Source: Escherichia phage mobillu. Taken from it: a stretch of 64,000 nt of DNA. The first letter of the stretch is position 1. Each line of letters opens with the position of its first letter. The stretch is from sequence record MN850622.1. One strand, written 5' to 3'. This document shows positions 16,286 through 48,350 of this stretch, in pieces. The position numbers and the translations under genes are program-made. The notes under the pieces were generated by a model. The model saw nothing but the letters and a program-made list of their open reading frames with translations, made no database searches and was not told the origin of the DNA.

Positions 16286-16759
16286 ATGTTATTATCAGGC
16301 GCAAAATATAAAGAAGAAAAACAAAAATTTTATGATGCACAGAATGGTAAGTGTCCTATTTGCCACCGTGAATTAGACCCTGATGTTCAAGGTAACCATC
16401 TTGACCACGACCACGAATTAAACGGGCCAAAAGCCGGTAGAGTTCGTGGATTACTCTGTAATCTGTGCAACGCAGCAGAAGGCCAAATGAAGCATAAGTT
16501 CAATCGTTCCGGTCTTAAAGGACGTGATGTTGACTACCTCGAATGGCTTGAAGCTCTTCTTGCTTATTTGAAACAAGATTATTCTGATAATAATATCCAT
16601 CCTAATTTTGTTCCAGACAAAACTAAAGAGTTCTCAAGACTAGGTAAAGAGGAAATGATGGCTGAGATGCTTCAAAGAGGATTTGAATATAATGAATCTG
16701 ACACCAAAACACAGTTAATAGCTTCATTTAAGAAGCAGCTTAGAAAGAGTTTAAAATGA
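16286..16759 (+). CDS. 49: endonuclease VII (Holliday junction resolvase)
   Basis: 157 aa; YKEEKQKFYDAQNGKCPIC..HLDHDHELNGPKAG.VRGLLCNLCN...GFEYNESDTKTQLIASFKKQLRKSLK matches T4 gp49 as I recall it. Confidence 0.9.
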   Translation: MLLSGAKYKEEKQKFYDAQNGKCPICHRELDPDVQGNHLDHDHELNGPKAGRVRGLLCNLCNAAEGQMKHKFNRSGLKGRDVDYLEWLEALLAYLKQDYSDNNIHPNFVPDKTKEFSRLGKEEMMAEMLQRGFEYNESDTKTQLIASFKKQLRKSLK

Positions 16760-18573
16760 CAATTGAAAAAGAAATTGAAGGATTGATTCATAAAACTAAT
16801 AAAGACCTTTTAAACGAGAATGCTAATAAAGATTCTCGTGTTTTTCCAACTCAACGGGACCTTATGGCCGGTATTGTGTCTAAACACATTGCCAAAAATA
16901 TGGTCCCGTCTTTTATTATGAAAGCGCATGAAAGCGGAATTATTCATTTCCACGATATTGATTATTCCCCTGCTCTTCCATTTACTAATTGCTGTTTAGT
17001 AGATTTAAAAGGAATGCTTGAAAACGGATTTAAGCTAGGTAATGCACAGATTGAAACTCCTAAATCAATTGGCGTTGCTACTGCAATTATGGCACAAATT
17101 ACTGCACAAGTTGCTTCCCATCAATACGGCGGAACGACTTTTGCTAATGTAGATAAAGTACTTTCTTCTTATGTTAAACGCACCTATGCAAAACATATTG
17201 AGGATGCAGAAAAATGGCAAATCGCTGATGCGTTGAATTATGCTCAATCTAAAACAGAAAAAGACGTATACGATGCATTCCAAGCTTATGAATATGAAGT
17301 AAATACTCTCTTTAGTTCAAACGGACAAACTCCTTTTGTAACAATTACATTTGGTACGGGAACTGACTGGACTGAACGAATGATTCAGAAAGCAATTCTG
17401 AAAAATCGTATTAAAGGTCTTGGTCGTGATGGAATAACTCCTATTTTCCCTAAGCTTGTTATGTTCGTTGAAGAAGGCGTTAATCTTTATAAAGACGATC
17501 CGAACTATGATATTAAGCAGCTTGCTCTAGAGTGTGCAAGCAAAAGAATGTATCCTGACATTATTTCGGTTAAGAATAATAAAGCTATTACCGGTTCTTC
17601 AGTTCCTGTTTCTCCAATGGGTTGCCGTAGTTTCTTGAGCGTATGGAAAGATTCAACCGGTAATGAAATTCTTGATGGTCGCAATAATCTTGGTGTTGTA
17701 ACATTGAATCTTCCTCGTATCGCGTTAGATTCTTATATTGGAACACAGTTCAATGAACAGAAATTTGTTGAGCTATTTAATGAACGAATGGATCTGTGTT
17801 TTGAAGCCTTGATGTGTAGAATTAGTTCCTTAAAAGGAGTTAAAGCAACTGTTGCTCCTATTCTTTACCAAGAAGGTGCATTAGGGGTTCGTCTTAAACC
17901 TGATGACGATATAATTGAGTTATTTAAAAACGGTAGAAGTTCAGTGTCTTTGGGATACATTGGTATTCACGAATTGAATATTCTTGTCGGTCGTGATATT
18001 GGGCAAGAAATTTTAACTAAAATGAATGCTCATCTTAAACAGTGGACTGAAAGAACCGGATTTGCTTTTAGTTTATATTCGACTCCTGCTGAAAACCTTT
18101 GTTATCGCTTCTGTAAACTTGATACAGAAAAATATGGAAGTGTAAAGGATGTCACTGATAAAGGCTGGTACACTAATAGTTTCCATGTTTCAGTAGAAGA
18201 AAATATTACTCCGTTTGAAAAGATTTCTCGTGAAGCGCCATATCATTTCATTGCGACAGGTGGTCACATTTCTTATGTTGAACTTCCTGATATGAAAAAT
18301 AACTTAAAGGGTCTTGAGGCCGTGTGGGATTATGCTGCACAACATTTAGATTATTTTGGTGTTAATATGCCAGTGGATAAATGTTTTACATGCGGAAGTA
18401 CTCATGAAATGACTCCCACTGAAAACGGATTTGTTTGTTCAGTTTGTGGAGAAAGTGATCCTAAAAAGATGAACACCATAAGAAGAACATGCGGTTATTT
18501 GGGAAATCCGAACGAACGAGGATTTAATCTCGGTAAAAATAAAGAAATCATGCATAGGGTTAAACACCAATGA
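16756..18573 (+). CDS. nrdD: anaerobic ribonucleoside-triphosphate reductase
   Basis: 605 aa; C-terminal zinc site C..C..C..C and glycyl-radical motif RRTCGYLG; uninterrupted reading frame. Confidence 0.95.
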   Translation: MTIEKEIEGLIHKTNKDLLNENANKDSRVFPTQRDLMAGIVSKHIAKNMVPSFIMKAHESGIIHFHDIDYSPALPFTNCCLVDLKGMLENGFKLGNAQIETPKSIGVATAIMAQITAQVASHQYGGTTFANVDKVLSSYVKRTYAKHIEDAEKWQIADALNYAQSKTEKDVYDAFQAYEYEVNTLFSSNGQTPFVTITFGTGTDWTERMIQKAILKNRIKGLGRDGITPIFPKLVMFVEEGVNLYKDDPNYDIKQLALECASKRMYPDIISVKNNKAITGSSVPVSPMGCRSFLSVWKDSTGNEILDGRNNLGVVTLNLPRIALDSYIGTQFNEQKFVELFNERMDLCFEALMCRISSLKGVKATVAPILYQEGALGVRLKPDDDIIELFKNGRSSVSLGYIGIHELNILVGRDIGQEILTKMNAHLKQWTERTGFAFSLYSTPAENLCYRFCKLDTEKYGSVKDVTDKGWYTNSFHVSVEENITPFEKISREAPYHFIATGGHISYVELPDMKNNLKGLEAVWDYAAQHLDYFGVNMPVDKCFTCGSTHEMTPTENGFVCSVCGESDPKKMNTIRRTCGYLGNPNERGFNLGKNKEIMHRVKHQ

Positions 18574-19040
18574 ATTATGATAGATTTTATCCTTGCGATT
18601 TTGTGAATGGCCCTGGTTGCAGGGTCGTTCTTTTCGTTACAGGTTGTTTGCATAAATGTGAAGGGTGTTATAATAAATCAACATGGAATGCTAGAAATGG
18701 TATTCCATTCACTGGTGAAACACTAGAACAATTAATTGAATGTTTGAATAATGATTATATAGAAGGATTGACTATAACCGGAGGAGACCCTCTCTATCCT
18801 GACAACCGAGATGTTATTCATTGCATTGCTCAAACAGTAAAAAATCTTTATCCCAATAAAAGCATTTGGTTGTGGACAGGATATAAGTTTGAAGATATTA
18901 AACAGCTAGAAATGCTTAAATATGTTGATGTTATTATTGATGGGAAGTATGAGAAAAATCTTCCGACCAAAAAACTGTGGCGAGGATCAGATAATCAGCG
19001 ACTTTGGTCAAATACCGATGGGGTGTGGAAACATGATTAA
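18570..19040 (+). CDS. nrdG: anaerobic RNR activating protein (radical SAM)
   Basis: 156 aa; CLHKCEGC radical-SAM cluster motif; ATGA coupling with nrdD. Confidence 0.9.
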   Translation: MNYDRFYPCDFVNGPGCRVVLFVTGCLHKCEGCYNKSTWNARNGIPFTGETLEQLIECLNNDYIEGLTITGGDPLYPDNRDVIHCIAQTVKNLYPNKSIWLWTGYKFEDIKQLEMLKYVDVIIDGKYEKNLPTKKLWRGSDNQRLWSNTDGVWKHD

Positions 19041-30659: not shown

Positions 30660-33371
30660 ATGAAAGAATTTTACTTAACGGTTGAACAGATTGGTGATTC
30701 AATTTTTGAACGTTACATCGATTCTAATGGCCGTGAACGTACTCGCGAAGTAGAATATAAACCATCACTGTTTGCTCATTGTCCAGAAAGTCAGGCTACG
30801 AAATATTTCGATATCTACGGTAAGCCGTGTACTCGTAAATTGTTCGCTAATATGCGTGATGCCTCCCAATGGATTAAACGCATGGAAGATATCGGACTTG
30901 AAGCACTTGGCATGGACGATTTCAAATTGGCGTATTTGTCTGACACTTATAACTATGAAATCAAATACGACCATACAAAAATTCGTGTGGCTAACTTCGA
31001 CATCGAAGTAACATCTCCGGACGGGTTCCCTGAGCCGTCACAAGCAAAACATCCGATTGATGCTATCACCCATTATGACTCAATTGACGACAGGTTCTAC
31101 GTATTTGATCTATTGAATTCTCCATATGGTAATGTGGAAGAATGGTCTATCGAAATTGCGGCTAAGCTTCAAGAACAAGGCGGTGATGAAGTTCCATCCG
31201 AAATTATCGATAAAATCATTTATATGCCGTTTGATAATGAAAAAGAATTATTGATGGAATATCTCAACTTCTGGCAACAGAAAACTCCTGTCATTTTGAC
31301 TGGATGGAACGTTGAGTCATTTGATATTCCATATGTGTATAACCGAATCAAGAATATTTTTGGCGAATCTACTGCGAAACGTTTATCGCCACATCGTAAA
31401 ACTCGTGTTAAAGTTATCGAAAACATGTATGGTTCTCGTGAAATCATTACATTGTTCGGTATCTCTGTTCTTGATTACATTGACCTTTACAAAAAATTCT
31501 CTTTTACCAATCAACCGTCGTATTCTCTGGATTACATTTCAGAATTTGAATTGAACGTTGGTAAACTGAAATATGACGGCCCTATTTCTAAGCTTCGTGA
31601 AAGCAATCACCAACGATATATTTCTTATAACATTATCGACGTGTATCGTGTATTGCAAATTGATTCTAAGCGTCAGTTCATCAACTTGAGCTTGGACATG
31701 GGTTATTATGCTAAAATTCAGATTCAATCTGTGTTTAGCCCAATTAAAACATGGGATGCTATTATTTTTAATAGCCTTAAAGAGCAGAACAAGGTGATTC
31801 CACAAGGTCGTTCTCACCCGGTTCAACCTTATCCTGGCGCTTTTGTTAAGGAACCTATTCCAAATCGATACAAATATGTAATGAGTTTCGACCTTACATC
31901 TCTGTATCCAAGTATTATTCGCCAAGTGAATATTAGCCCTGAAACAATAGCAGGAACGTTTAAAGTAGCTCCACTGCATGATTATATTAACGCAATCGCT
32001 GAACGTCCTTCAGATGTGTACAGTTGTTCTCCTAACGGCATGATGTATTATAAAGACCGTGATGGTGTAGTTCCAACTGAAATCACTAAGGTCTTTAATC
32101 AACGTAAAGAACATAAAGGTTATATGCTTGCAGCTCAACGTAATGGTGAAATAATTAAAGAGGCATTGCATAATCCTAATCTTTCTGTTGACGAACCATT
32201 AGATGTTGATTATCGTTTTGACTTCACTGACGAGATTAAAGAAAAGATTAAAAAGTTGTCTGCTAAATCTCTTAATGAAATGTTGTTTAGAGCTCAACGT
32301 ACTGAAGTTGCAGGTATGACTGCACAAATTAACCGTAAATTGCTTATCAACTCACTTTATGGTGCACTTGGCAACGTTTGGTTCCGTTATTATGATTTGC
32401 GTAATGCTACTGCAATCACAACATTCGGGCAAATGGCTTTACAGTGGATTGAACGTAAAGTTAATGAATATCTGAATGAAGTTTGTGGTACAGAAGGTGA
32501 AGCTTTCGTTCTTTATGGTGATACAGACTCTATTTACGTATCTGCTGATAAAATTATCGATAAGGTTGGTGAATCTAAATTCCGCGATACTAACCATTGG
32601 GTAGACTTCTTAGATAAGTTTGCACGTGAACGTATGGAACCAGCTATTGATAGAGGTTTCCGTGAAATGTGTGAATACATGAACAATAAACAACACTTAA
32701 TGTTCATGGACCGAGAAGCTATCGCTGGTCCTCCGCTCGGTTCTAAAGGTATTGGTGGATTCTGGACTGGCAAGAAACGTTATGCATTAAACGTGTGGGA
32801 TATGGAAGGCACTCGTTACGCCGAGCCTAAACTCAAAATCATGGGTCTAGAGACTCAGAAATCTTCGACCCCTAAAGCAGTACAGAAAGCTCTTAAAGAA
32901 TGTATTCGTCGTATGCTTCAAGAAGGTGAAGAATCATTACAAGAATATTTTAAAGAGTTTGAAAAAGAATTCCGTCAATTGAATTATATTAGCATCGCGT
33001 CGGTATCTTCTGCGAATAACATTGCTAAATATGACGTAGGTGGATTCCCGGGTCCTAAATGCCCGTTCCATATTCGTGGAATTCTGACGTATAACCGAGC
33101 TATCAAAGGTAATATTGATGCACCACAAGTTGTAGAAGGTGAAAAAGTATATGTTCTGCCTTTACGTGAAGGAAACCCATTCGGTGATAAATGTATCGCA
33201 TGGCCTTCTGGTACTGAAATCACAGATTTAATTAAAGACGATGTACTTCATTGGATGGACTACACTGTTCTCCTTGAGAAGACATTTATTAAACCGCTTG
33301 AAGGATTCACATCAGCAGCTAAACTCGATTACGAGAAGAAAGCATCTCTGTTCGATATGTTTGATTTTTGA
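30660..33371 (+). CDS. 43: DNA polymerase (family B) gp43
   Basis: 903 aa; exonuclease motif FDIEV, polymerase motifs DxxSLYPS, KxxxNSLYG, YGDTDS; N-terminus matches the RB69-type polymerase as I recall it. Confidence 0.97.
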   Translation: MKEFYLTVEQIGDSIFERYIDSNGRERTREVEYKPSLFAHCPESQATKYFDIYGKPCTRKLFANMRDASQWIKRMEDIGLEALGMDDFKLAYLSDTYNYEIKYDHTKIRVANFDIEVTSPDGFPEPSQAKHPIDAITHYDSIDDRFYVFDLLNSPYGNVEEWSIEIAAKLQEQGGDEVPSEIIDKIIYMPFDNEKELLMEYLNFWQQKTPVILTGWNVESFDIPYVYNRIKNIFGESTAKRLSPHRKTRVKVIENMYGSREIITLFGISVLDYIDLYKKFSFTNQPSYSLDYISEFELNVGKLKYDGPISKLRESNHQRYISYNIIDVYRVLQIDSKRQFINLSLDMGYYAKIQIQSVFSPIKTWDAIIFNSLKEQNKVIPQGRSHPVQPYPGAFVKEPIPNRYKYVMSFDLTSLYPSIIRQVNISPETIAGTFKVAPLHDYINAIAERPSDVYSCSPNGMMYYKDRDGVVPTEITKVFNQRKEHKGYMLAAQRNGEIIKEALHNPNLSVDEPLDVDYRFDFTDEIKEKIKKLSAKSLNEMLFRAQRTEVAGMTAQINRKLLINSLYGALGNVWFRYYDLRNATAITTFGQMALQWIERKVNEYLNEVCGTEGEAFVLYGDTDSIYVSADKIIDKVGESKFRDTNHWVDFLDKFARERMEPAIDRGFREMCEYMNNKQHLMFMDREAIAGPPLGSKGIGGFWTGKKRYALNVWDMEGTRYAEPKLKIMGLETQKSSTPKAVQKALKECIRRMLQEGEESLQEYFKEFEKEFRQLNYISIASVSSANNIAKYDVGGFPGPKCPFHIRGILTYNRAIKGNIDAPQVVEGEKVYVLPLREGNPFGDKCIAWPSGTEITDLIKDDVLHWMDYTVLLEKTFIKPLEGFTSAAKLDYEKKASLFDMFDF

Positions 33372-33411: not shown

Positions 33412-34047
33412 ATGAAAACTACACCAATCACTATCGCTATTGACGCAATCGTAAAACAAGCTTCATCTCTTGCCACTATGGCTAAAGTAATTAGTCAAAA
33501 CCCTGCTCGGTATAATGCTATTCTTGAAACTCTTCGTCGCCCTGGACTGAGTAATTATGAAAGTCGTGTAATTATTACAGGTGTTGGTAAGAACGCTAAT
33601 ATCGCAACTAAAGCTTCCGAGACTTTTGCTTCACTAGGTATTCCTAGCATGTATTTGAACACTGGGCATTATTCTCATGGTGACGCAGGATTTATTGCAC
33701 CTAATGATGTATTAGTTCACATCAGCCGTTCTGGTAAGACTGAAGAAATGATAGGTGTTGCTAAACATCTTCGTATGATTCGTCCTCAGGTTAAACAGAT
33801 TCTGTTACATTGTAACCCTGACATTCCACAAGAATACGAAGCCCTTTTTGATTACTCTTTCTGTACAGGCATCGCGGTAGAGGTTGATGAGAATTCTCTG
33901 GCTCCGACCATGTCCACTACATTGTTGTTAGCGCTTATCGATACGTTTGCTATCAACCTTTCGTCTGAACGTGGATTTACCTCTAATGATTTCCTTAAGT
34001 TCCATCCAGGCGGTGCACTAGGTGCCATGTTACGAGGCGAACAATGA
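33412..34047 (+). CDS. SIS-domain sugar-phosphate isomerase (GmhA/KdsD-like)
   Basis: 211 aa; SIS signature VIITGVGKNANIA...HISRSGKTEE; single-domain size similar to phosphoheptose isomerase. Confidence 0.75.
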   Translation: MKTTPITIAIDAIVKQASSLATMAKVISQNPARYNAILETLRRPGLSNYESRVIITGVGKNANIATKASETFASLGIPSMYLNTGHYSHGDAGFIAPNDVLVHISRSGKTEEMIGVAKHLRMIRPQVKQILLHCNPDIPQEYEALFDYSFCTGIAVEVDENSLAPTMSTTLLLALIDTFAINLSSERGFTSNDFLKFHPGGALGAMLRGEQ

Positions 34048-34187
34048 AAGCAATAACAATAGGACTTTTACTATTGATGCTTGTCATGACTATCTACTGG
34101 AGCTTAACGGCTCCGGTAATGATTCCAACACTTGTAATTGGATGGATTATGATTGGTCTACAGGCAAAGTATGAATGCTTTAACTAG
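34044..34187 (+). CDS. hypothetical small membrane protein (47 aa)
   Basis: ATGA coupling with SIS gene stop; two hydrophobic segments; below ORF-track cutoff. Confidence 0.4.
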   Translation: MKAITIGLLLLMLVMTIYWSLTAPVMIPTLVIGWIMIGLQAKYECFN

Positions 34188-34228
34188 AATAGTGTACAAT
34201 ACTCCTACTTACCAATGAGGACTTCAAC

Positions 34229-35914
34229 ATGAAAAAAGCTGTTATTCTTGGTGCTGGATTGGCAACTCGTTTGTATCCAATAACGCATCATATTCCTAAG
34301 GTGCTTGTTAACTATAAACAAGACACTATTCTGAGCAATTTGTATACAATTTATTCTGACCTTGGCGCAGATGAAATTATTGTAGTAGTTCATTCAAAAT
34401 TTGCTGAAACTGTTCGAGCTTATTGTGAGCAAGAAGGGTTCAATGTGACTATTCGTACAGTTGATGAAGCGTATGGTTCTGCTTATGCTCTTGCTAAATT
34501 ACACAAAGATTTAGACGGCCATAATGTAATTGTTAACTGGTGTGATATTATTCCCGATTTTGGTTCATGGTCTTGGAATGTTAACGCAATCTATGTTAAG
34601 GGTGACGAATGTCGATATAATTTCGACGGTGAAAATATCACTAACGTAGGTTCAACAGGTGGTAATGTTGTAGGAATTTATCAGTTCAAAGACTGGGAAT
34701 TCTATATGGGTTCTACTGATGAGGAAATTCATGAATACTGCAAAGGACGTGATTTCGTAGAATTCCTTTACGGCAGCGCATTCAATAAATCAGAGCTTAT
34801 GAATATAATTGATTTAGGTGATATGCCTAAACTTGAAAAGGCTCATGAAGTTCGTGAACTTAATCGTAGTTTTAATGCAGTTGAAATTGGTGAAGAAACT
34901 GTAACTAAATTCGCATTAACCGAACAGGGACGAGCTCTTCAGAAAGATGAGATTTCGTGGTATTTGAAAGTGAAATCAGATTCAGTTCCTCAGTTAGTTT
35001 CTGTTAATGAAAATAACTTTGAAATGGAACGCATTAAAGGTAAGCCGGCATTTGAATATATTAAATCAAAATCAAGTCTTGCTCGTCCACAAATTATTGA
35101 TGCAATTTTAGATGCACTGAAATTCAGCACAGACACTTATTTTGTAAGTCCTGAAACTGTTCGTCGTGATTTCACTAAAGAATTCTATACGAAAGTTATT
35201 GATCGTTGTGAAAGCATTCAACCATTGATTGATTCATTTGGTAAAATCACACATGTGAACTACACTAAGATTGGACGTCTGAAGCCAATGCTGAAACAAG
35301 CTTTAGAACACCTTATTCGTTATCATAACCGTTCTCAGGGACAGTACTCTGTTATTCATGGTGACCCGAACTTCAGTAATACTATGATTACTGATAACGG
35401 CGAAGTCAAGTTTATCGACCCTCGTGGATATTTTGGCGAAACCAAGATTTACGGGCCAAAATTGTATGATGAAGCTAAAGTGCTTTATGCTGTTTCAGGT
35501 TATGATGAATTCAATGCTAATCCGACCTGGGGACAGTTTACTATTGATGAAACAACTTGTAATGTGACTATTAACATCAATCCATTAGTTTACAAATATG
35601 GAAAGATGAGTTCGTTTAACGAGTATCATCATTTGGCTGTAGCAATTATCTGGATTGCATTAGGTGGTTATTTCAAGAATAATCCACTTAAAGCGGTAGC
35701 CGCATATTATAAAGGTATGGAACTTCTGACTAAGCAATTACGTAACATGGGCCGTGTACTTCAAGACGGCTCTATTAGTTATGACGTAGCAGAACCTGTA
35801 ACGGCTACTCTGATTACAAAAAATCCTGGTAAATGGGTACTAACTGATAAAGAAACTGGTGTTTCCTATCGTCCAATCGGTGGCGATATCACTCATCAAT
35901 GGGAACGAATCTAA
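34229..35914 (+). CDS. bifunctional sugar-1-phosphate nucleotidyltransferase / sugar kinase (APH-choline kinase fold)
   Basis: 561 aa; N-terminal NTP-transferase signature AVILGAGLATRLYPIT..PK; C-terminal kinase motifs VIHGDPNFSNTMI and FIDPRGYFGE. Confidence 0.75.
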   Translation: MKKAVILGAGLATRLYPITHHIPKVLVNYKQDTILSNLYTIYSDLGADEIIVVVHSKFAETVRAYCEQEGFNVTIRTVDEAYGSAYALAKLHKDLDGHNVIVNWCDIIPDFGSWSWNVNAIYVKGDECRYNFDGENITNVGSTGGNVVGIYQFKDWEFYMGSTDEEIHEYCKGRDFVEFLYGSAFNKSELMNIIDLGDMPKLEKAHEVRELNRSFNAVEIGEETVTKFALTEQGRALQKDEISWYLKVKSDSVPQLVSVNENNFEMERIKGKPAFEYIKSKSSLARPQIIDAILDALKFSTDTYFVSPETVRRDFTKEFYTKVIDRCESIQPLIDSFGKITHVNYTKIGRLKPMLKQALEHLIRYHNRSQGQYSVIHGDPNFSNTMITDNGEVKFIDPRGYFGETKIYGPKLYDEAKVLYAVSGYDEFNANPTWGQFTIDETTCNVTININPLVYKYGKMSSFNEYHHLAVAIIWIALGGYFKNNPLKAVAAYYKGMELLTKQLRNMGRVLQDGSISYDVAEPVTATLITKNPGKWVLTDKETGVSYRPIGGDITHQWERI

Positions 35915-36300
35915 TGCACCGTGTAGAAAACATGCTTAATCTTTGTTTTGATGTCGATGATTGTATAACAGAGTGGAATAACAATCGTGATTACGTGAAC
36001 TTCAAACCAGACGTCGAAATGGTGTCTGCCATTAATGCCCTGTATGATGCAGGGCATACCATAACGCTTTACACTGCTCGCGGTATGAAGTCAGTAGGTC
36101 CTGGTCGTATAGCAATTGACATTCTCCCAAGTCTGATTCAGAACTTGGCAAACATTGGCTTGAAGTACCATAATTTGCTAACACATAAACCAGTATATGA
36201 TTGGATTATCGACGACAAAGCTATGCGTCCTGACGAATTCAAAGCTCTTATGAATAAAGGCGAATTCGAAACATTTAAATCATATAAACCAAATCTATAA
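35914..36300 (+). CDS. HAD-superfamily phosphatase
   Basis: 128 aa from ATG 35914 (TAATG coupling); HAD motif I FDVDDCIT near N-terminus; C-terminal WIIDDKA. Confidence 0.65.
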   Translation: MHRVENMLNLCFDVDDCITEWNNNRDYVNFKPDVEMVSAINALYDAGHTITLYTARGMKSVGPGRIAIDILPSLIQNLANIGLKYHNLLTHKPVYDWIIDDKAMRPDEFKALMNKGEFETFKSYKPNL

Positions 36301-36357
36301 TAATTTAAGTAAGACCTGCAAAAACCATCGCATCAATTAACGTGAGATGCAAAAAAA

Positions 36358-37518
36358 ATGAATACTTTTAAAATCGGAACGAATTTTGATTTAGCTCTTC
36401 TTGATAAAATCGTAGAGCTCAATAAAACTTATCCTAATAGCTTGATAAACGAAGTATACGGCTCTACAAGAGAAATGGCTTTTGTAGCAGCCAGACCTGA
36501 TTTTAGGCTTCCTGACGTTGACAAAAAGATGTTAGAAGATTACGTTAAACGTTGTAACGAATTAGGTATTTGCTTTAACTATACACTCAACACGATAAAT
36601 CCTGGTTCAAAAAGAGAACTAGTTGAGTGGAAGAAGAAAGCTATTCAGGATTATGTTCAGTATCTTTGGTCAATAGGCGTATGGCGTATTACTATCGCTA
36701 ACCCTGTTGTTATGGAAATTGTTCGTGAAGTCAATAAAGACATTGAGATTGAAGTTTCAACAATTCTACATGTCGATGCTGTAACTCAAATCAAATACTT
36801 GCATGACCAGTATAATATCAAAAAGGTCTGCTGTGGAATTCATAAGAACCGTTCAGTTTCTTTCCTGAAGCGTGCAGCAGAGTTTTGCAATAAGAACAAT
36901 ATAATATTTGAAGTTCTTGTAAATGAGTTCTGTTCTAATGCTGGTAAAGGGTATACAACACATTGTAGCTATCGTGACTCTTGCTATATTTTCCATAGTA
37001 CTGATGTTACAGCTGATGATGCTAAATCCTTAAACGGATATCCTATGCAGCACTGTATTAAAGCTCGTGATACAGACCCATTTAACTGGTTGAGAACTCG
37101 TTTTGTTCGTCCTCAAGATTTGAAACTTTATAATGATATTGGTATCACTCAATTCAAAGTTTCAGGACGTACAGGTAGCACAGACTACATTTTGAAAGTT
37201 CTTGAAGCATACGCTTCTGAAAAGTTTGAAGGTAATTTGTTAGAACTGTGGAAGCCTTTAGAGACTATTTTCACTCTTGAAAATGAGACCGAGTTTTCAC
37301 ATACGGTAAATATTGAAACCTCTTTGTTAGATGGCTTTTTAGAAAAAAGGTGGTTCAGACATCCAGATTTCGATTGTGCTAATGAAATCTGCGGGACGAC
37401 GTGTACATATTGTGAAAGATATTATAAACGTCAGTTATCTAAAAATGGGTTATCAGAAAATTCTATATCTATTATTGATATAACTAACTCTGATGACGCT
37501 TTGAGGTACCCAGAATGA
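36358..37518 (+). CDS. U32-family-like Cys-rich protein (tentative)
   Basis: 386 aa; layout YTLNTIN ... EVSTILHV ... IFEVLVNEFCSNAGKGYTTHCSY resembles U32 (PrtC/RlhA/UbiU) family; C-terminal cluster C-x4-C-x4-C-x2-C. Confidence 0.55.
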   Translation: MNTFKIGTNFDLALLDKIVELNKTYPNSLINEVYGSTREMAFVAARPDFRLPDVDKKMLEDYVKRCNELGICFNYTLNTINPGSKRELVEWKKKAIQDYVQYLWSIGVWRITIANPVVMEIVREVNKDIEIEVSTILHVDAVTQIKYLHDQYNIKKVCCGIHKNRSVSFLKRAAEFCNKNNIIFEVLVNEFCSNAGKGYTTHCSYRDSCYIFHSTDVTADDAKSLNGYPMQHCIKARDTDPFNWLRTRFVRPQDLKLYNDIGITQFKVSGRTGSTDYILKVLEAYASEKFEGNLLELWKPLETIFTLENETEFSHTVNIETSLLDGFLEKRWFRHPDFDCANEICGTTCTYCERYYKRQLSKNGLSENSISIIDITNSDDALRYPE

Positions 37519-37754
37519 TTTCTAGAAAAACTTTTAACCACCAACTTAATGAAGAGATTTTGACTATGAAAATTAACAGCAACGAACAAATTCTTAAAAA
37601 GGCCCTTATGGGCCTGTTTGAAACTAAAGCGGCTAAAGTGATTAAAGGACCTGTTCAATTGGAATACTACGCTGATGCATTTCTTCATAGTGTTCTTGGA
37701 AGTATCGATGCTGAAGCTTTACGTTATATCAACATTGTCAAGAAATTCAAATAA
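37515..37754 (+). CDS. hypothetical protein
   Basis: ORF 79 aa, ATGA overlap. Confidence 0.5.
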   Translation: MISRKTFNHQLNEEILTMKINSNEQILKKALMGLFETKAAKVIKGPVQLEYYADAFLHSVLGSIDAEALRYINIVKKFK

Positions 37755-37796
37755 GCTTTACGAATTGAGTATATAATAAATTGTATTGAGGTAAAC

Positions 37797-38513
37797 ATGG
37801 GAAAACATAACACAATGAAATATATCAAAGCCGCAGATTTTCAAACCGCATTTAAAGCAGTCAATCGTGAAATTTTAGAAAACCCGGAATTCGTAACTGA
37901 TTCTCGTATTGGACGTTGTAATGAAATTGGGTCTATGACAGTAGTTGTTGACACTCCATCATCATTCAAAATGACCGACCCACGTATTAACCGCATCTCT
38001 TATGAATACGCCGAAGATTTCTGGAAGTTTATGATTTCTGGTGGTACCAACGCAGAAGAAGCGTTTAAGGCATATCCTAATGTCGCTAAATTTATTTCTA
38101 AACCAAAATCAGATGTTTTGCCGGCGAACTTCAACACTTTCTACGGTCCTCGCATTGCGGCCCAATTACCAGCTCTTCTAAAAGAACTTAAAGAGAAGCC
38201 TAACTCCCGAAGAGTTGTGTTCCAAATTCTAGAAAGTTCTGATCAGGCTTTGCTTGATTCAGACGAAACGCTTGAATATCCATGTACTGACTCAGTGACT
38301 TATTATATTCGTGATGGTAAGCTTTATACCCACTGTCATATGCGTTCTCAGAACTGTGCTGTTGTTATGCAGTTGGATTTTTATCTCCAAGGAAAATTAC
38401 TTCATTATATCGCTAACGAATGTGGTGTAGAAGTTGGTGATTATACTCATACCATGGTAAGTGCCCATGTGTTTGAACGTGATTTTGATTATGTTAAAGG
38501 ATTCCTTGACTAA
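37797..38513 (+). CDS. 42: dCMP hydroxymethylase gp42 (thymidylate synthase family)
   Basis: 238 aa; PCTDSVTYYIRD ... HMRSQN segments correspond to T4 gp42 active-site region as I recall it. Confidence 0.8.
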   Translation: MGKHNTMKYIKAADFQTAFKAVNREILENPEFVTDSRIGRCNEIGSMTVVVDTPSSFKMTDPRINRISYEYAEDFWKFMISGGTNAEEAFKAYPNVAKFISKPKSDVLPANFNTFYGPRIAAQLPALLKELKEKPNSRRVVFQILESSDQALLDSDETLEYPCTDSVTYYIRDGKLYTHCHMRSQNCAVVMQLDFYLQGKLLHYIANECGVEVGDYTHTMVSAHVFERDFDYVKGFLD

Positions 38514-39412
38514 TGGCTATTTTCCGCGTACCAATCTTGAGTATGCGGTCTTATGAAACTGGACAGTATGCTATCCTTAAGGATGGCAACTTCCAACTTC
38601 ATTTGCACCGTGCTAATCCAGGTGATGTGATTACATATCCACGTAATGCATCTGATATTAAAGAATGCGAACGTCTTTTCCCAGAATTTAAGTTTGTTCC
38701 ATTATGGTATAAAGATAACGCGTATAACACTCGTAAATATTTCTGGTCTGAAAATGAATTTGTGGTTGATTCATTAATTGCTTATTATGATTGTGATTTT
38801 CTAATCACAGATATCACCGGATATGACGGTGCTTTTGATGTAGAATTCAATTTCAATATCACTGCAGACCCTAATAAACCACGTTTTTATATTGACGAAT
38901 TCTTAAAAACCGACATGTTGTCGGTTAATCGTTCACTTCAAACTACTGTGTTGAACGAACGTCAAAAAGAAGTGCTGGTTAACGCAGGTGCAGATGGTAA
39001 TAAGATTATCGTAACGCAGAAAGTTATACGTCCTTCCATCATGCAGCGTCTTGTAGGTGATTTGGCTCCTATTCATCTAGATGGTATTTTTCATCCATTT
39101 CGAATTAGCGACCCGTGCTATCGTTTTGAACAAGTGGTTGAATGTGCAATTCAATTAGGCCAACCGCTTTATATAACCGATCCAAATAATAGCTTCGACA
39201 GAAATAAGTATCCTGAAGAAGCGCTGATTCGAATTTTTAAACCAACTAAAACTGAGTACTATCAAATTCTTAAAGGACGTCCGAAAATTCAATATTTCGA
39301 AAATCCTGAAGAAGTATTCCATCCAGGTCTTGGTGAGTTCATCTACTTTAATGCTTTAATTTCTTCGCCGTATAATATACCTAAATATGAAGATGTCGTA
39401 ATCGAGGAATAA
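38513..39412 (+). CDS. hypothetical protein occupying the beta-glucosyltransferase locus
   Basis: 299 aa; no similarity to T4 beta-gt recognised; TAATG coupling with gene 42. Confidence 0.6.
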   Translation: MAIFRVPILSMRSYETGQYAILKDGNFQLHLHRANPGDVITYPRNASDIKECERLFPEFKFVPLWYKDNAYNTRKYFWSENEFVVDSLIAYYDCDFLITDITGYDGAFDVEFNFNITADPNKPRFYIDEFLKTDMLSVNRSLQTTVLNERQKEVLVNAGADGNKIIVTQKVIRPSIMQRLVGDLAPIHLDGIFHPFRISDPCYRFEQVVECAIQLGQPLYITDPNNSFDRNKYPEEALIRIFKPTKTEYYQILKGRPKIQYFENPEEVFHPGLGEFIYFNALISSPYNIPKYEDVVIEE

Positions 39413-39413
39413 A

Positions 39414-39962
39414 ATGGCTAAAATTATTTTAGTAGATGGCCCAGATAATGCTGGTAAAACAACTTTCATTAATGACATAATGGAAATTAGTGAAAGATAT
39501 GTAAAGATTGATTTCCCTAAACGAACAGTTGATGGGCGTTTCGATGTTAAGTCTCGAAATGAAGTTGGCTGCTTCGAAACGATGTTGAATTATTTAGACC
39601 CTACTAAGATTTATCTGTTAGACCGTGGATATATTAGTAACTGGGTTTATGGACGTATTCGACAAGATGCGGACTCGGTTCTTGACGTTTATGAACAGGA
39701 TTATGTTCGTCTTTGCCAAAACCATGATGTGTTCACAATTATTTTAACACGTAACGAAATGACTGAAAGTTTTGAAGACGACCTTATTACTTTGTCTTCA
39801 TTCGGTTTTAATACAGTCATTTCACATTTTGAAGAGTTTGCAATTCATAACAAAATCCAAACGTATCAATTACTTAATCATGATGGTGCTAACAAAGTTA
39901 TAGGATTTAATGCAAGCGAACGTAATTATTTGATTACAGAAATTATCAAATGGGCTCGTTAA
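39414..39962 (+). CDS. P-loop nucleoside/nucleotide kinase-like protein
   Basis: 182 aa; Walker A VDGPDNAGKTT; LDRGYIS resembling dNK/TMK family. Confidence 0.65.
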   Translation: MAKIILVDGPDNAGKTTFINDIMEISERYVKIDFPKRTVDGRFDVKSRNEVGCFETMLNYLDPTKIYLLDRGYISNWVYGRIRQDADSVLDVYEQDYVRLCQNHDVFTIILTRNEMTESFEDDLITLSSFGFNTVISHFEEFAIHNKIQTYQLLNHDGANKVIGFNASERNYLITEIIKWAR

Positions 39963-40060: not shown

Positions 40061-41233
40061 ATGTCTGATTTAAAATCTCGTTTGATTAAAGCTTCTACTT
40101 CTAAAATGACTGCAGACTTGACTAAGTCTAAGCTGTTTAATAATCGCGATGAAGTCCCTACTCGTATTCCAATGTTGAATATTGCACTAGGTGGTGCACT
40201 GAATGCCGGGTTGCAATCAGGCTTGACTATTTTTGCTGCTCCTTCTAAACACTTTAAAACGTTGTTTGGACTGACCATGGTTGCAGCATATATGAAGAAA
40301 TATAAAGATGCAATCTGTTTGTTTTATGACTCAGAATTCGGTGCTTCGGAATCTTATTTTCGTTCAATGGGTGTTGATTTAGACCGTGTAGTTCATACTC
40401 CGATTCAATCGGTCGAACAACTTAAGGTTGATATGACTAATCAGCTTGACGCGATTGAACGCGGTGATAAAGTTATTATCTTTATTGACTCGATTGGTAA
40501 TACTGCATCTAAGAAAGAAACCGAAGATGCATTGAACGAGAAAGTTGTAGGTGATATGTCTCGTGCTAAGGCACTTAAATCTCTGTTCCGCATTGTGACC
40601 CCGTATCTGACTATTAAAGATATTCCGTGTGTTGCAATTAACCATACAGCAATGGAAATCGGCGGATTGTATCCTAAAGAGATTATGGGCGGTGGTACAG
40701 GTATTCTTTATTCTGCCAACACGGTATTTTTTATCTCTAAACGTCAGGTTAAAGAAGGTACAGAATTGACCGGTTATGACTTCACGTTGAAAGCAGAAAA
40801 ATCTCGCACAGTTAAAGAGAAATCTACTTTCCCGATCACGGTTAATTTTGATGGCGGTATTGACCCATTCAGTGGCTTGTTAGAAATGGCAACTGAAATT
40901 GGTTTTGTAGTTAAGCCTAAAGCTGGTTGGTATGCTCGTGAATTCCTTGACGAAGAAACAGGTGAAATGATTCGTGAAGAAAAATCATGGCGTGCTAAAG
41001 CTACTGATTGTGTAGAATTCTGGGGACCTTTGTTTAAACACAAACCTTTCCGAGATGCAATTGAAACTAAATATAAACTAGGTGCTATCTCTTCTATTAA
41101 AGAAGTTGATGACGCTGTTAACGACCTTATTAATTGCAAAGCAACAACTAAAGTTCCGGTTAAAACTTCTGATGCTCCATCTGCAGCAGATATAGAAAAC
41201 GACCTTGACGAAATGGAAGATTTCGATGAATAA
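40061..41233 (+). CDS. uvsX: recombinase UvsX (RecA-like)
   Basis: 390 aa; Walker A-like AAPSKHFKT, RecA core; matches T4 UvsX size and position. Confidence 0.9.
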   Translation: MSDLKSRLIKASTSKMTADLTKSKLFNNRDEVPTRIPMLNIALGGALNAGLQSGLTIFAAPSKHFKTLFGLTMVAAYMKKYKDAICLFYDSEFGASESYFRSMGVDLDRVVHTPIQSVEQLKVDMTNQLDAIERGDKVIIFIDSIGNTASKKETEDALNEKVVGDMSRAKALKSLFRIVTPYLTIKDIPCVAINHTAMEIGGLYPKEIMGGGTGILYSANTVFFISKRQVKEGTELTGYDFTLKAEKSRTVKEKSTFPITVNFDGGIDPFSGLLEMATEIGFVVKPKAGWYAREFLDEETGEMIREEKSWRAKATDCVEFWGPLFKHKPFRDAIETKYKLGAISSIKEVDDAVNDLINCKATTKVPVKTSDAPSAADIENDLDEMEDFDE

Positions 41234-44540: not shown

Positions 44541-44789
44541 ATGGAATTATTCGTAGCTAGTTCAGTAGCAGTTTTAATCGCAGGTATTGGTTCAATCATC
44601 ATTTACATGTTGCCTTGGGTAATCGCACTTATTCGTGGCACAAAAAGCACAACAGCAATCTTCTTTGTATCTTTACTCTTTAACTGGACGATGGTTGGTT
44701 GGATTGGAACTTTAATTTGGTCTATCATTGCCGAAAAGAAATCGGCTCAGCAGCCTCAACAAGTAATTATTATTCGCGAAAAAGAATAA
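44541..44789 (+). CDS. hypothetical membrane protein
   Basis: Two hydrophobic helices; 82 aa. Confidence 0.55.
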   Translation: MELFVASSVAVLIAGIGSIIIYMLPWVIALIRGTKSTTAIFFVSLLFNWTMVGWIGTLIWSIIAEKKSAQQPQQVIIIREKE

Positions 44790-44852: not shown

Positions 44853-45146
44853 ATGAAAAAGTTATCATTGGCAGCAATCTTACTTGCAGTATCATGTGCA
44901 CCGGCTCCAGTTACGGCAGGTTATGATAAAGACCTCTGTGAGTGGTCAATGACTGCAAATCAAGAAGATGTTGAACAACAAATCTTCTCTGATATCATGA
45001 ACATCACTAAACGAGACCGTCCTAATATGGTTAATAAAGTTGTTGAACAACTTAAGTCTGGCGGTATCATGCAGTACAACTATGTTTTGTATTGTGACCC
45101 TAATTTCGATAACAAAGATATCGTAACCGAAATCACAGGTGAATAA
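44853..45146 (+). CDS. sp: Spackle-like periplasmic protein (tentative)
   Basis: 97 aa with signal peptide; AGYDKDLCEWSMTA...YNYVLYCD resembles T4 Sp as I recall it. Confidence 0.5.
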   Translation: MKKLSLAAILLAVSCAPAPVTAGYDKDLCEWSMTANQEDVEQQIFSDIMNITKRDRPNMVNKVVEQLKSGGIMQYNYVLYCDPNFDNKDIVTEITGE

Positions 45147-45798
45147 TATGATTTATTATATGCACAAAAATGCGCCATTTAAATATGGTAAATTTCCTAA
45201 TGCACAATGTTATAATATAACGCCGAATGAAAATAATAACGGATACCATCTCGGTGTAATTTTTGTAATTGTTAAAGATAACGAAATAGTTGCCTGGGCA
45301 GATTTTAAAGGTACAACATATGATGTTAATCCTGTGCCTTTCACATATTACAATATAATGGATTTGGCATATGATTATAATTGGTTTAATCATGACACGT
45401 TGGCTCATATTGAAGGTGTAGGATTTGACATCTCTTATTCTAGCTATTCATTATGTCCTATGAGCCGAGCTCACGGTAAAGATGTATCATATCTTTCAAT
45501 TCGGAAACGTGTAAACTTCAAACGTAGTACAGAGTATGTTGGTGGACTCTTTGTTAAAGATAATAAAATAACCCGTATTAGTTATCCTCTAAGTGTAGGC
45601 CAAAAAGATGTTGATGTTGATTTGGACTTAACTGAAAATAACATTAATCGTATTGCTTCTGTATATTTTGATATCGATGAAAAAATTGTAGTGTGTGGAT
45701 ACGAATTACCACCTGAAGAAAAGGCCGAAGCAATTGAAGTCGAATTAGAAATTTCTGTTGATGACCAAATATTTAATGCATTTATGAATCGAGGTTAA
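45139..45798 (+). CDS. hypothetical protein
   Basis: ORF 219 aa. Confidence 0.55.
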   Translation: MNNMIYYMHKNAPFKYGKFPNAQCYNITPNENNNGYHLGVIFVIVKDNEIVAWADFKGTTYDVNPVPFTYYNIMDLAYDYNWFNHDTLAHIEGVGFDISYSSYSLCPMSRAHGKDVSYLSIRKRVNFKRSTEYVGGLFVKDNKITRISYPLSVGQKDVDVDLDLTENNINRIASVYFDIDEKIVVCGYELPPEEKAEAIEVELEISVDDQIFNAFMNRG

Positions 45799-47740: not shown

Positions 47741-47828
47741 GATATCTCCTTAGTTACCTATTATTTATTACGCTTTATAAAATTAATGTTAGAATTAACT
47801 CTCTTATACTGAATTGAAAGGAAAAATA

Positions 47829-48350
47829 ATGGCACACTTTAACGAATGTTCACAACTTATTTCTGGTGTTGATAAAGCAGAAGAAGCTTATTTTAATGCT
47901 CTGATTCACGAAGATAAAGACCCACTGCAGGTAATGCTTGATATGCAGAAATCTTTACAGGTTCGTCTGGCAAATGACAAGCCTGAACATAACAAACATC
48001 CTGATGAATTGGCCACTGCTGGCGATGTTGTTGATTGGCTGCGTAATCAGAAAGATTATATTGATGATGAATTTCGTGAACTGCTGACTTCACTTGGTGG
48101 TATGTCCAACGGTGAAAAAGCTGCCAGCTCTGTGTGGAAGCCATGGAAAGCACAACATGCTGAATATCGTAATCGTCGTATTGATGAACTGTCTCCTGAA
48201 GACCAGCTCGAAATTAAATTCGAAATGATTGATATTCTGCACTTCGTTCTGAACATGTTCCAAGGTCTGGGTCTTTCTGCCGAAGAAATCTTTAAACTGT
48301 ATTATCTGAAGAATGCTGAAAACTTTGCTCGTCAAGACCGAGGTTATTAA
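47829..48350 (+). CDS. 56: dCTP pyrophosphatase gp56 (MazG-like)
   Basis: 173 aa from ATG 47829; MAHFNEC...DPLQVMLDMQ...ETAGDVV.W...IDDEFRELLTSLG...SPEDQLEIKFE..DI.HFVLNMF.GLG...EEIFKLYYLKN.ENFARQDRGY matches T4 gp56 as I recall it. Confidence 0.85.
   Translation: MAHFNECSQLISGVDKAEEAYFNALIHEDKDPLQVMLDMQKSLQVRLANDKPEHNKHPDELATAGDVVDWLRNQKDYIDDEFRELLTSLGGMSNGEKAASSVWKPWKAQHAEYRNRRIDELSPEDQLEIKFEMIDILHFVLNMFQGLGLSAEEIFKLYYLKNAENFARQDRGY

Follow-up and report, generated by a model that had tools for sequence, protein, structure and literature searches.

The arabinosyl-5-hydroxycytosine gene block of Escherichia phage mobillu and a candidate oxygen-independent hydroxylase of the U32 family

Gene content and relatives of the block

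Escherichia phage mobillu (sequence record MN850622.1) was analysed over a stretch of 64,000 nucleotides, here called the window, in which a 6.55-kb block at positions 33412-39962 carries genes resembling those of a known DNA hypermodification pathway together with the gene for a protein of the U32 family. The predicted functions of these genes, and of the U32 gene in particular, are the subject of this report. The block comprises nine co-directional open reading frames (ORFs) on the plus strand, with the DNA polymerase gene on one side and the gene for UvsX on the other (Table 1). All nine lie at the coordinates assigned to them in a preliminary description made from the letters of the sequence, and its domain calls (SIS, NTP_transferase with an APH-type kinase, HAD, U32, ThyA-type and P-loop kinase) were borne out by Pfam, NCBIfam and PHROGs. 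The corresponding slot of phage T4, between gene 43 and uvsX, holds imm.1, imm, 42, b-gt and segA; the block sits, as described earlier, where T4 has imm and b-gt, and imm itself is relocated in the window. The base-composition profile over the block revealed nothing unusual.

Table 1. Features of the block and of other parts of the window; enzyme names are predictions from homology
Feature	Position in window	Strand	Length	Remarks
D-arabinose-5-phosphate isomerase (RB69 gp55 homolog)	33412-34047	+	211 aa	predicted ribulose-5-P to arabinose-5-P; SIS, KpsF/KdsD type
Hydrophobic ORF	34044-34187	+	47 aa	two-transmembrane-like; phrog_3610, E=7e-27; kept within the cluster
Bifunctional arabinose-5-P 1-kinase / UDP-arabinofuranose pyrophosphorylase (AfhE, RB69 gp52:53 homolog)	34229-35914	+	561 aa	
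HAD-type phosphatase (AfhF, RB69 gp51 homolog)	35899-36300	+	133 or 128 aa	predicted arabinose-1,5-bisphosphate to arabinose-1-P; ATG at 35899 (133 aa) or 35914 (128 aa)
U32-family Fe-S protein (RB69 gp50 homolog)	36358-37518	+	386 aa	13 Cys; predicted hydroxylase
79-aa ORF	37515-37754	+	79 aa	translationally coupled to U32 (ATGA overlap); phrog_8601
5-hydroxy-dCMP synthase (RB69 gp48 homolog)	37797-38513	+	238 aa	ThyA superfamily; flavin/O2-dependent
GT-B DNA arabinosyltransferase 1 (GT1, RB69 gp46:47 homolog)	38513-39412	+	299 aa	T4 b-gt position; predicted fold
Thymidylate-kinase-like P-loop nucleotide kinase (RB69 gp45 homolog)	39414-39962	+	182 aa	phrog_761, E=2e-45
DNA arabinosyltransferase 2 (GT2, RB69 ORF003c/gp3 homolog)	60333-61433	+	366 aa	between topoisomerase gene and rIIA
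DNA polymerase	30660-33371			flanks the block
UvsX	40061-41233			flanks the block
Anaerobic ribonucleotide reductase NrdD	16756-18573			
imm	44541-44786			relocated relative to T4
Anti-DarT factor A (AdfA) homolog	45139-45798			full-length; Pfam PF23813, E=1.5e-119
178-aa ORF	47814-48350		178 aa	weak dUTPase_2/PRA-PH matches

The window belongs to a Mosigvirus. The preliminary description had allowed that the DNA might be RB69, but it is a close relative and not RB69 itself: the block shares 97.8% nucleotide identity with RB69, 98.2% with Bas46 (ChristianSchoenbein) and 96.5% with HY126. To judge from its full-length presence at 95-99% identity in 153 phage records (top match 98.7%), all of them Mosigvirus-like coliphages or Shigella phages, the block is not a product of chance. 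Individual proteins are 96-100% identical to their counterparts in HY126, RB69 and Bas46, with the exception of the 79-aa ORF, intact in the window but split in HY126 as deposited. The ORFs of 561 and 299 aa, likewise intact in the window, are split in the RB69 record, which Thomas et al. (PMC6024577) and Lee et al. (PMC13326640) put down to sequencing errors. The published Afh clusters (gp45-gp55) of HY126, RB69 and Bas46 (He et al. 2026, Nat Chem Biol; Lee et al. 2026, NAR; Mahler et al. 2025, Cell Host Microbe) have the same genes in the same order, and nothing material differs. The cluster is already known, being a near-identical copy of an experimentally dissected system.

Misannotations are widespread among the GenBank and PHROG entries of the relatives, in which the HAD phosphatase is called a "phosphoheptose isomerase", AfhE "GlmU" or a "capsular polysaccharide biosynthesis protein", the 5-hydroxy-dCMP (5hodCMP) synthase a "dCMP hydroxymethylase" or "thymidylate synthase", and the U32 protein a "peptidase" or "collagenase".

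The predicted arabinosylation pathway

Mono- or di-arabinosyl-5-hydroxy-dC replaces dC in the virion DNA of RB69, NP, Bas46 and HY126. Arabinose has been identified chemically in the DNA of these four phages (PMC13326640, PMC6024577, PMC13390438), and nuclear magnetic resonance and mass spectrometry (NMR/MS) established an ether linkage to 5-hydroxycytosine (PMC13326640). As judged from sequence, the mobillu block very probably encodes the same arabinosyl-5-hydroxycytosine (ara-5hoC) DNA hypermodification pathway of Mosigvirus phages.

The base arm of this pathway would depend on the ThyA homolog, which carries the Pfam Thymidylat_synt domain, is 97.9% identical to the HY126 protein and 99.2% identical to RB69 gp48, and matches the deposited structures 9IQC, 9IR2 and 9IQU (E=8e-161) with 5 differences in 238 residues. 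These structures are presumably of the HY126 protein; the window protein differs from the HY126 genome copy at the same number of residues. Identity to T4 gp42 is 24.8%, with T4-type dCMP hydroxymethylases in general at about 25%. In a three-way alignment at E. coli ThyA positions, the catalytic Cys is retained, D169, which is kept in T4 gp42, is replaced by N in the window protein, N177 is replaced by D and L143 by E; T4 gp42 also has N177D, with E or D in place of L143. The D169N substitution has been described as a predictor of 5hodCMP synthases, and RB69 gp48 makes 5hodCMP with oxygen derived from O2, as determined by 18O2 labelling, and binds flavin (Lee et al., PMC13326640). The window enzyme would accordingly be expected to hydroxylate dCMP at C5 with flavin and O2, and 5-hydroxy-dCMP would then be raised to the triphosphate by kinases and incorporated by the polymerase. 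A 178-aa ORF elsewhere in the window is probably a gp56-type dCTPase that keeps dCTP out of phage DNA (RB69p028, Lee et al.), and would functionally belong to the pathway.

Thomas et al. (2018), who reported arabinose in RB69 DNA, proposed that the sugar is carried by 5-hydroxymethylcytosine (hmC), with ORF003c as transferase and ORF055c and ORF53_52c as UDP-arabinose genes (PMC6024577). The preliminary description likewise took the ThyA homolog of mobillu for the product of gene 42, an hmC-forming dCMP hydroxymethylase. This assignment to ara-hmC was the first given for RB69 DNA (PMC6024577) and accords with the Thymidylat_synt domain, the synteny with T4 gene 42, and the N177D and L143E substitutions common to T4 gp42 and the window protein. 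It is now highly improbable: the protein is only distantly similar to T4 gp42 and differs from it at position 169, it is about 98% identical to enzymes whose product is 5hodC by 18O2 labelling, flavin content and liquid chromatography-mass spectrometry (PMC13326640), and the NMR/MS data as well as a 2026 paper on Mosigvirus NP, which calls the hmC assignment of RB69 erroneous (PMC13390438), contradict it. The near-identity to the solved protein (9IQC) together with D169N points to a sugar that is ether-linked to 5-hydroxycytosine and not to hmC.

The sugar arm is formed by the isomerase, the AfhE-like enzyme and the HAD phosphatase, whose RB69 counterparts gp55, gp52:53 and gp51 have been designated isomerase, AfhE and AfhF, respectively (Lee et al. 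2026, PMC13326640). The isomerase matches Pfam SIS (E=2.8e-9), phrog_5670 "arabinose 5-phosphate isomerase" (E=3e-116), the NCBIfam models KpsF/GutQ (E=1e-31) and KdsD (E=4e-30), and the arabinose-5-phosphate isomerase structures 3etn (E=1e-24), 5uqi and 2xhz (KdsD, E=1.5e-18); its NCBIfam and PDB matches were confined to the KpsF/KdsD/GutQ type, with GmhA absent from both. The AfhE-like enzyme, 97% identical to its HY126 and 99% to its RB69 counterpart, contains an N-terminal Pfam NTP_transferase domain (residues 3-99, E=9e-10) and, at residues 308-409, weak APH, fructosamine-kinase-like and choline-kinase-like Pfam matches that are not of the PfkB type. It also matches 1jyk in the PDB (E=2e-5) and sugar-1-phosphate nucleotidylyltransferases in NCBIfam. 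The HAD phosphatase is 100% identical to the HY126 protein and matches TIGR01689, a capsule biosynthesis phosphatase (NCBIfam, E=4e-13), and phrog_1238.

In the predicted sequence of reactions, the isomerase would convert ribulose-5-phosphate to arabinose-5-phosphate, the kinase domain of the 561-aa enzyme would phosphorylate the latter at C1, the HAD phosphatase would take off the 5-phosphate, and the N-terminal nucleotidyltransferase domain of the 561-aa enzyme would uridylylate arabinose-1-phosphate to UDP-arabinofuranose. These steps have been shown in near-identical homologs and are assigned here by sequence identity. Arabinose-5-phosphate kinase activity and UDP-arabinose pyrophosphorylase activity of HY126 AfhE and Mg-dependent phosphatase activity of HY126 AfhF are attributed to He et al. 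2026, as cited in PMC13326640. Consequently, the earlier statement that the precursor enzymes are not biochemically defined is outdated, to the extent of that citation, whereas the route from ribulose-5-phosphate to a nucleoside diphosphate (NDP)-arabinose that feeds a non-glucose DNA hypermodification, also proposed in the preliminary description, is upheld by the KdsD/KpsF-type isomerase and the near-identity to HY126 and RB69. The alternative of an NDP-heptose (GmhA/HldE/GmhB) or another non-arabinose sugar, for which the same logic of isomerase, kinase, phosphatase and nucleotidyltransferase and the "phosphoheptose isomerase" label on the HAD protein could be cited, is scarcely credible and for heptose is excluded by the match of the isomerase to 3etn, 5uqi and 2xhz, the lack of a GmhA match, the APH/choline-kinase-like rather than PfkB kinase domain, and the arabinose found chemically in the DNA of the relatives.

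The 47-aa ORF between the isomerase and AfhE genes has a copy with 41% identity at the same place in Yersinia phage phiR1-RT. A hydrophobic, membrane-type micro-protein is an odd companion for a cytoplasmic nucleotide-sugar pathway.

Transfer of the sugar to DNA is attributed to two proteins, following the proposal in the RB69 literature that gp46:47 and gp3 are the first and second arabinosyltransferases (PMC13326640); GT1 would add the first arabinose and GT2 the second. The preliminary description had called the 299-aa protein, here GT1, unrelated, which it is not, and GT1 matched neither a Pfam family nor any PDB chain sequence. Its AlphaFold2 model, with a predicted local distance difference test score (pLDDT) of 95.3, has a GT-B glycosyltransferase fold. 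Foldseek matched the model to GT-B proteins, by entry MshA (3c4q, TMq 0.60), 7qsg (0.63) and 6kih; a mycobacterial mannosyltransferase and sucrose-phosphate synthase are among its matches, as are UDP-GlcNAc 2-epimerases and 9ir0, the glycosyltransferase of HY126. GT2, encoded outside the block, matches phrog_8302 and the PDB entries 9IQZ and 9IR0, "phage HY126 glycosyltransferase with UDP" (E=4e-247), and is with the ThyA homolog one of two window proteins that match deposited structures ascribed to HY126. The kinase at the end of the block gave a weak match to the P-loop of dTMP kinase (NCBIfam), and its RB69 counterpart gp45 is listed as a "nucleotide kinase" (PMC13326640).

The pathway has in common with the hmC-glucose system of T4 (gp42, the gp1 deoxynucleoside monophosphate kinase and the alpha- and beta-glucosyltransferases) a ThyA-family enzyme acting on dCMP, kinases, incorporation by the polymerase, a GT-B enzyme acting on DNA, and the genomic slot between gene 43 and uvsX. 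It differs in adding a hydroxyl and not a hydroxymethyl group, in using flavin and O2 instead of methylene-tetrahydrofolate, in a ThyA homolog that is only 25% identical, and in drawing arabinofuranose from a phage-made UDP-sugar instead of host UDP-glucose. No b-gt homolog is present: tblastn of T4 b-gt against the window, which holds 64 kb of the genome, returned nothing below E=1, a search that did not include alpha-gt, and both T4-type glucosyltransferases are reported missing from RB69 (PMC6024577), in agreement with the absence of T4-type glucosyltransferases claimed earlier.

Certain points count against the assignment of this pathway to mobillu. It rests on near-identity to studied phages; the first transferase step is without in vitro reconstitution in the literature (PMC13326640); and the P-loop kinase has no assigned role.

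The U32 protein and its gene neighbourhoods

The U32 protein matches Pfam Peptidase_U32 (E=7e-11, 42.2 bits against a cut-off of 22.4). Profile and Foldseek searches of the ORFs had been proposed in the preliminary description, and in addition to placing the 299-aa protein as GT-B they confirmed the U32 fold, the best PDB structural match of the AlphaFold2 model (pLDDT 93.2) being the U32 protein 5d88. PDB chain sequences gave no match to U32, and the protein is only 14-23% identical to the E. coli U32 proteins. Alignments of the U32 family with single E. coli sequences by hhalign were weak and partial, and when MAFFT was used on the family and its E. coli paralogs the Cys region came out misaligned; the reading of the Fe-S ligands rests on a global profile-profile run of hhalign against an alignment of UbiU, RlhA and TrhP. 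In this run the profile of 81 U32 homologs matched with 98% probability (E=1e-12, 281 columns), C203 and C209 fell on the canonical CX6C Fe-S ligands C169 and C176 of UbiU, and the KxxGR motif was conserved. Nine Cys are invariant in the 81 homologs (C158, C192, C203, C209, C233 and a C-terminal CX4CX3CX2C group at 340-352), which is enough for two clusters.

Members of this family with known roles, UbiU/V, RlhA and TrhP, bind 4Fe-4S clusters and take part in hydroxylations that need no O2, and prephenate, the established oxygen donor for UbiU/V, has been proposed for the whole U32 family (PMC10990095). The database annotation of RlhA is 23S rRNA 5-hydroxycytidine C2501 synthase. With RlhA (23S rRNA ho5C2501), TrhP (tRNA ho5U34) and UbiU/UbiV (anaerobic ubiquinone) the phage protein shares the Peptidase_U32 TIM-barrel, the Cys pair and KxxGR; U32 relatives are coupled genomically to prephenate synthesis, and C5 of a pyrimidine is the target of both RlhA and TrhP. 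It is distinguished from them by the extra invariant C-terminal motif, by its place in a DNA-modification cluster, and by a predicted deoxynucleotide or DNA substrate.

Taken with the gene neighbourhoods and the distribution described below, these comparisons make it somewhat more probable than not that the U32 protein is a prephenate-dependent, O2-independent hydroxylase of cytosine at C5. Such an enzyme would supply the 5-hydroxyl in an anoxic host, where the O2-dependent synthase cannot work. Pairs of O2-dependent and O2-independent enzymes that yield one product over the whole range of O2 are exemplified by TrhO/TrhP for tRNA (PMC6599085), UbiI/H/F and UbiU/V, and, for ribonucleotide reduction in T4-like phages, NrdAB and NrdDG. 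The phage ThyA/U32 pair may be likened by analogy to pairs of the TrhO/TrhP type, and the window also encodes NrdD.

The gene neighbourhoods of U32 in other phages point indirectly to prephenate. In Shewanella phage Thanatos-1 the U32 gene overlaps, by ATGA, the gene for a type II chorismate mutase of 85 aa (CM_2, 34.7 bits against a cut-off of 27). The enzyme has homologs in 51 phage records, next to U32 in every case for which coordinates were compared, and the phages are those of Klebsiella, Serratia, Yersinia, Enterobacter, Edwardsiella, Erwinia, Shewanella, Pectobacterium, Providencia, Morganella and, in a few records, Escherichia. The phage enzyme keeps R11, R28, K39, E52, S84 and Q88 of the E. 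coli chorismate mutase EcCM, and its top NCBIfam matches are all chorismate mutases. The gene order in Yersinia phage phiR1-RT is U32, the 79-aa ORF homolog, chorismate mutase and ThyA homolog.

The 79-aa ORF has homologs in 162 phage records and adjoins U32 in all cases among the matches listed. It is split or frameshifted in HY126 (locus L019, 5501-5739), and the matches in phi25-307, 172859UKE1, 348Ecol098PP, AV114 and EP02SG are partial or in two pieces; the ORF may be dispensable, or the splits may be sequencing errors. As a candidate for a divergent chorismate mutase it was rejected, having no BLASTP likeness to the Thanatos enzyme and no Pfam match and lacking the catalytic residues, and in phiR1-RT its homolog coexists with a true chorismate mutase.

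When IMG/VR was scanned with the U32 profile, 47 loci were retrieved, 15 of them T4-like and 32 distant, with U32 proteins 40-55% identical. Chorismate mutase lies between U32 and the ThyA homolog in 13 of the 15 T4-like loci, and a chorismate mutase domain gene occurs near U32 in 11 of the 32 distant loci, five of these being fusions of 3-deoxy-D-arabino-heptulosonate-7-phosphate (DAHP) synthase with chorismate mutase (L046, L047, L049, L050 and L060); all the chorismate mutase domain genes of distant loci that were tested pass the Pfam cut-offs. DAHP synthase also stands alone near U32 in L010 (9145-9891). From this gene content, phages appear to drive carbon into the shikimate pathway, for which we know of no description in viruses.

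Pairing of U32 with other genes was counted over 39 loci, comprising the 32 distant IMG/VR loci and 7 metagenome loci. GT1 homologs occur near U32 in 20 of the 39, directly abutting it in about half of these, and AfhE homologs in 17, mostly next to an isomerase homolog. In only one of the 39 did a ThyA-like ORF turn up within about 8-10 kb of U32, and that ORF is a canonical thymidylate synthase. In many uncultivated phages U32 appears, on gene content, to be the sole hydroxylase encoded near the transferase. Other neighbours include genes for dCMP deaminase, deoxynucleoside kinase (dNK), NT5C, dUTPase/DCD, proteins of the UDG family and radical S-adenosylmethionine (SAM)/SPASM proteins. In L015 the GT1-U32 pair has a nucleotide-kinase homolog directly upstream, and L010 has a weaker homolog, which mildly favours a mononucleotide as substrate; RlhA and TrhP, however, act on polymers, and the substrate may be dCMP or DNA. 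The L015 segment 5777-14179 (Logan SRR33454321) encodes a GT1 homolog, U32, a TAGT-like glycosyltransferase, dUTPase/DCD, a Gly_transf_sug protein and UDP-galactopyranose mutase and has no gene of the ThyA type in the vicinity, which suggests a galactofuranosyl (or other) modification of a hydroxy-pyrimidine built on the U32 hydroxylase.

Radical-SAM/SPASM genes recur near U32 in metagenomic phage contigs (L008, 12160-14360; L016, 5972-7000; L007, 1-249). In L008 a second and very divergent U32 paralog, about 22% identical, lies beside such a gene, and this arrangement may represent a UbiU/UbiV-like pair or a maturation factor.

Distribution, oxygen and biological meaning

The distribution of U32 bears on its role in the pathway. 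Homologs of AfhE occur in 365 phage records, of which 57 are from Acinetobacter, and U32 in 221 phage records, with identities of 80% or more throughout; Acinetobacter is absent from the genus summary of these 221 records and from the matches listed. The genome of Acinetobacter phage AbTZA1 has the HAD gene directly against the ThyA homolog, so that U32 and the 79-aa ORF are exactly what is missing. Acinetobacter is a strict aerobe. Phage DLP3, whose gene table lists no U32-like protein, makes mono- to tri-arabinosyl-5hoC (PMC13326640). Since DLP3 arabinosylates without a listed U32 and no Acinetobacter phage surfaced among the U32 matches summarised or listed, U32 is unneeded for the synthesis or transfer of UDP-arabinofuranose. 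Where it is present, U32 is better conserved between genera than any other protein of the cluster, with 83% identity in the Yersinia and 79% in the Shewanella phage; the corresponding values are 82 and 72% for the ThyA homolog, 66 and 54% for AfhE, 65 and 48% for GT1, and 58 and 44% for the kinase.

An anaerobic ribonucleotide reductase, NrdD, is encoded in the window and is 98-99% identical to the annotated NrdD of related phages, with a 156-aa ORF following it in the position of NrdG (region 16756-19040). Acinetobacter is outside the ten most frequent genera of 2913 NrdD-bearing phage records, and at least 57 Acinetobacter phages carry arabinose genes; this top-ten list hints, indirectly, that NrdD may be lacking from Acinetobacter phages.

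Two other functions have to be weighed for U32. The first, that it is a sugar or heterocycle reductase or a collagenase-like peptidase, acting on the sugar arm or unrelated to DNA modification, derives from the label "sugar or heterocycle reductase" given to RB69 gp50 in a paper whose discussion names the RlhA and TrhP/TrhO pathways without tying gp50 to them (PMC13326640), and from the collagenase-like peptidase label in GenBank. The position of the gene between those of the sugar and base arms and the name of the top structural match, "U32 peptidase" 5d88, would fit this, but the dispensability of U32 for UDP-arabinofuranose synthesis and transfer in Acinetobacter phages and DLP3 does not, the characterised members of the family are all tied to hydroxylation (PMC10990095), and the recurrent adjacency of chorismate mutase or DAHP-synthase fusions would be left unexplained; we regard it as unlikely. 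Still less likely is that U32 is a prephenate-dependent hydroxylase of host RNA or another small molecule that serves host takeover. The only known nucleic-acid substrates of the family are indeed rRNA C2501 and tRNA U34, but the phage gene sits in DNA-modification clusters and has GT1, nucleotide kinase, dCMP deaminase, dNK/NT5C and dUTPase/DCD genes as neighbours in unrelated phage lineages.

Hydroxylation of cytosine by U32 is itself a purely comparative proposal, and several observations weigh against it. For the third and fourth Fe-S ligands the alignment is no more than approximate, C233 lying 6 residues off C193 of UbiU, and in vitro hydroxylase activity has been demonstrated directly for no U32 protein (PMC10990095). 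The window has no chorismate mutase gene, the 79-aa ORF being followed by a gap of 42 nt (37755-37796), and mobillu would rely on host PheA/TyrA for prephenate. E. coli Dhakaviruses such as IME08 (L011) carry arabinose genes without U32, so that some phages with a facultatively anaerobic host can do without it; this architecture weakens a simple link between U32 and the oxygen physiology of the host, and a strict rule confining U32 to phages of facultative anaerobes was discarded on account of IME08. Full-text literature searches, whose scope did not extend to He et al. (2026) or to Mahler et al. (2025), found no paper that connects U32 with chorismate mutase and phage DNA modification, or with arabinose, phage and cytosine, and either of those two papers may already treat the U32 protein.

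The IME08 cluster has further peculiarities, in that no arabinose-5-phosphate isomerase is obvious, the kinase precedes the ThyA homolog, and imm is still next to the polymerase gene. Elsewhere in the mobillu window, the AdfA homolog listed in Table 1 is a counter-defence gene unrelated to the block.

The part of the finding that may be new is the role of the U32 protein as an Fe-S hydroxylase with chorismate mutase as its partner. In relatives, arabinosylation is documented to make the phage resistant to type II restriction, to glycosylases of the Brig1 type and to some CRISPR-Cas systems, and sensitive to enzymes of the GmrSD/BrxU type. The only demonstrated source of the 5-hydroxyl requires O2, yet the gut in which these coliphages live is largely anoxic, and they encode an anaerobic ribonucleotide reductase. 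If the proposed function of U32 is correct, it would explain how the modification is kept up without O2, and arabinosylating phages of facultative anaerobes would possess two interchangeable routes to 5-hydroxycytosine, one of the flavin/O2 ThyA type and one of the Fe-S/prephenate U32 type. Among uncultivated phages, many would have only the U32 route, served by a chorismate mutase or DAHP-synthase fusion of their own together with a GT1-type transferase and, in some cases, a nucleotide kinase; they would form a broad set in which glycosylated hydroxy-pyrimidines are made without a ThyA-type enzyme encoded close by. The phage protein would be the first hydroxylase of the U32 family to have DNA or DNA precursors as its target, and prephenate would for the first time be found to serve a virus as oxygen donor, a chemistry that would then reach from RNA and quinones to DNA, and it would give a reason for the chorismate mutase genes of T4-like phages. 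It would also be relevant to phage therapy and phage engineering under anaerobic conditions.

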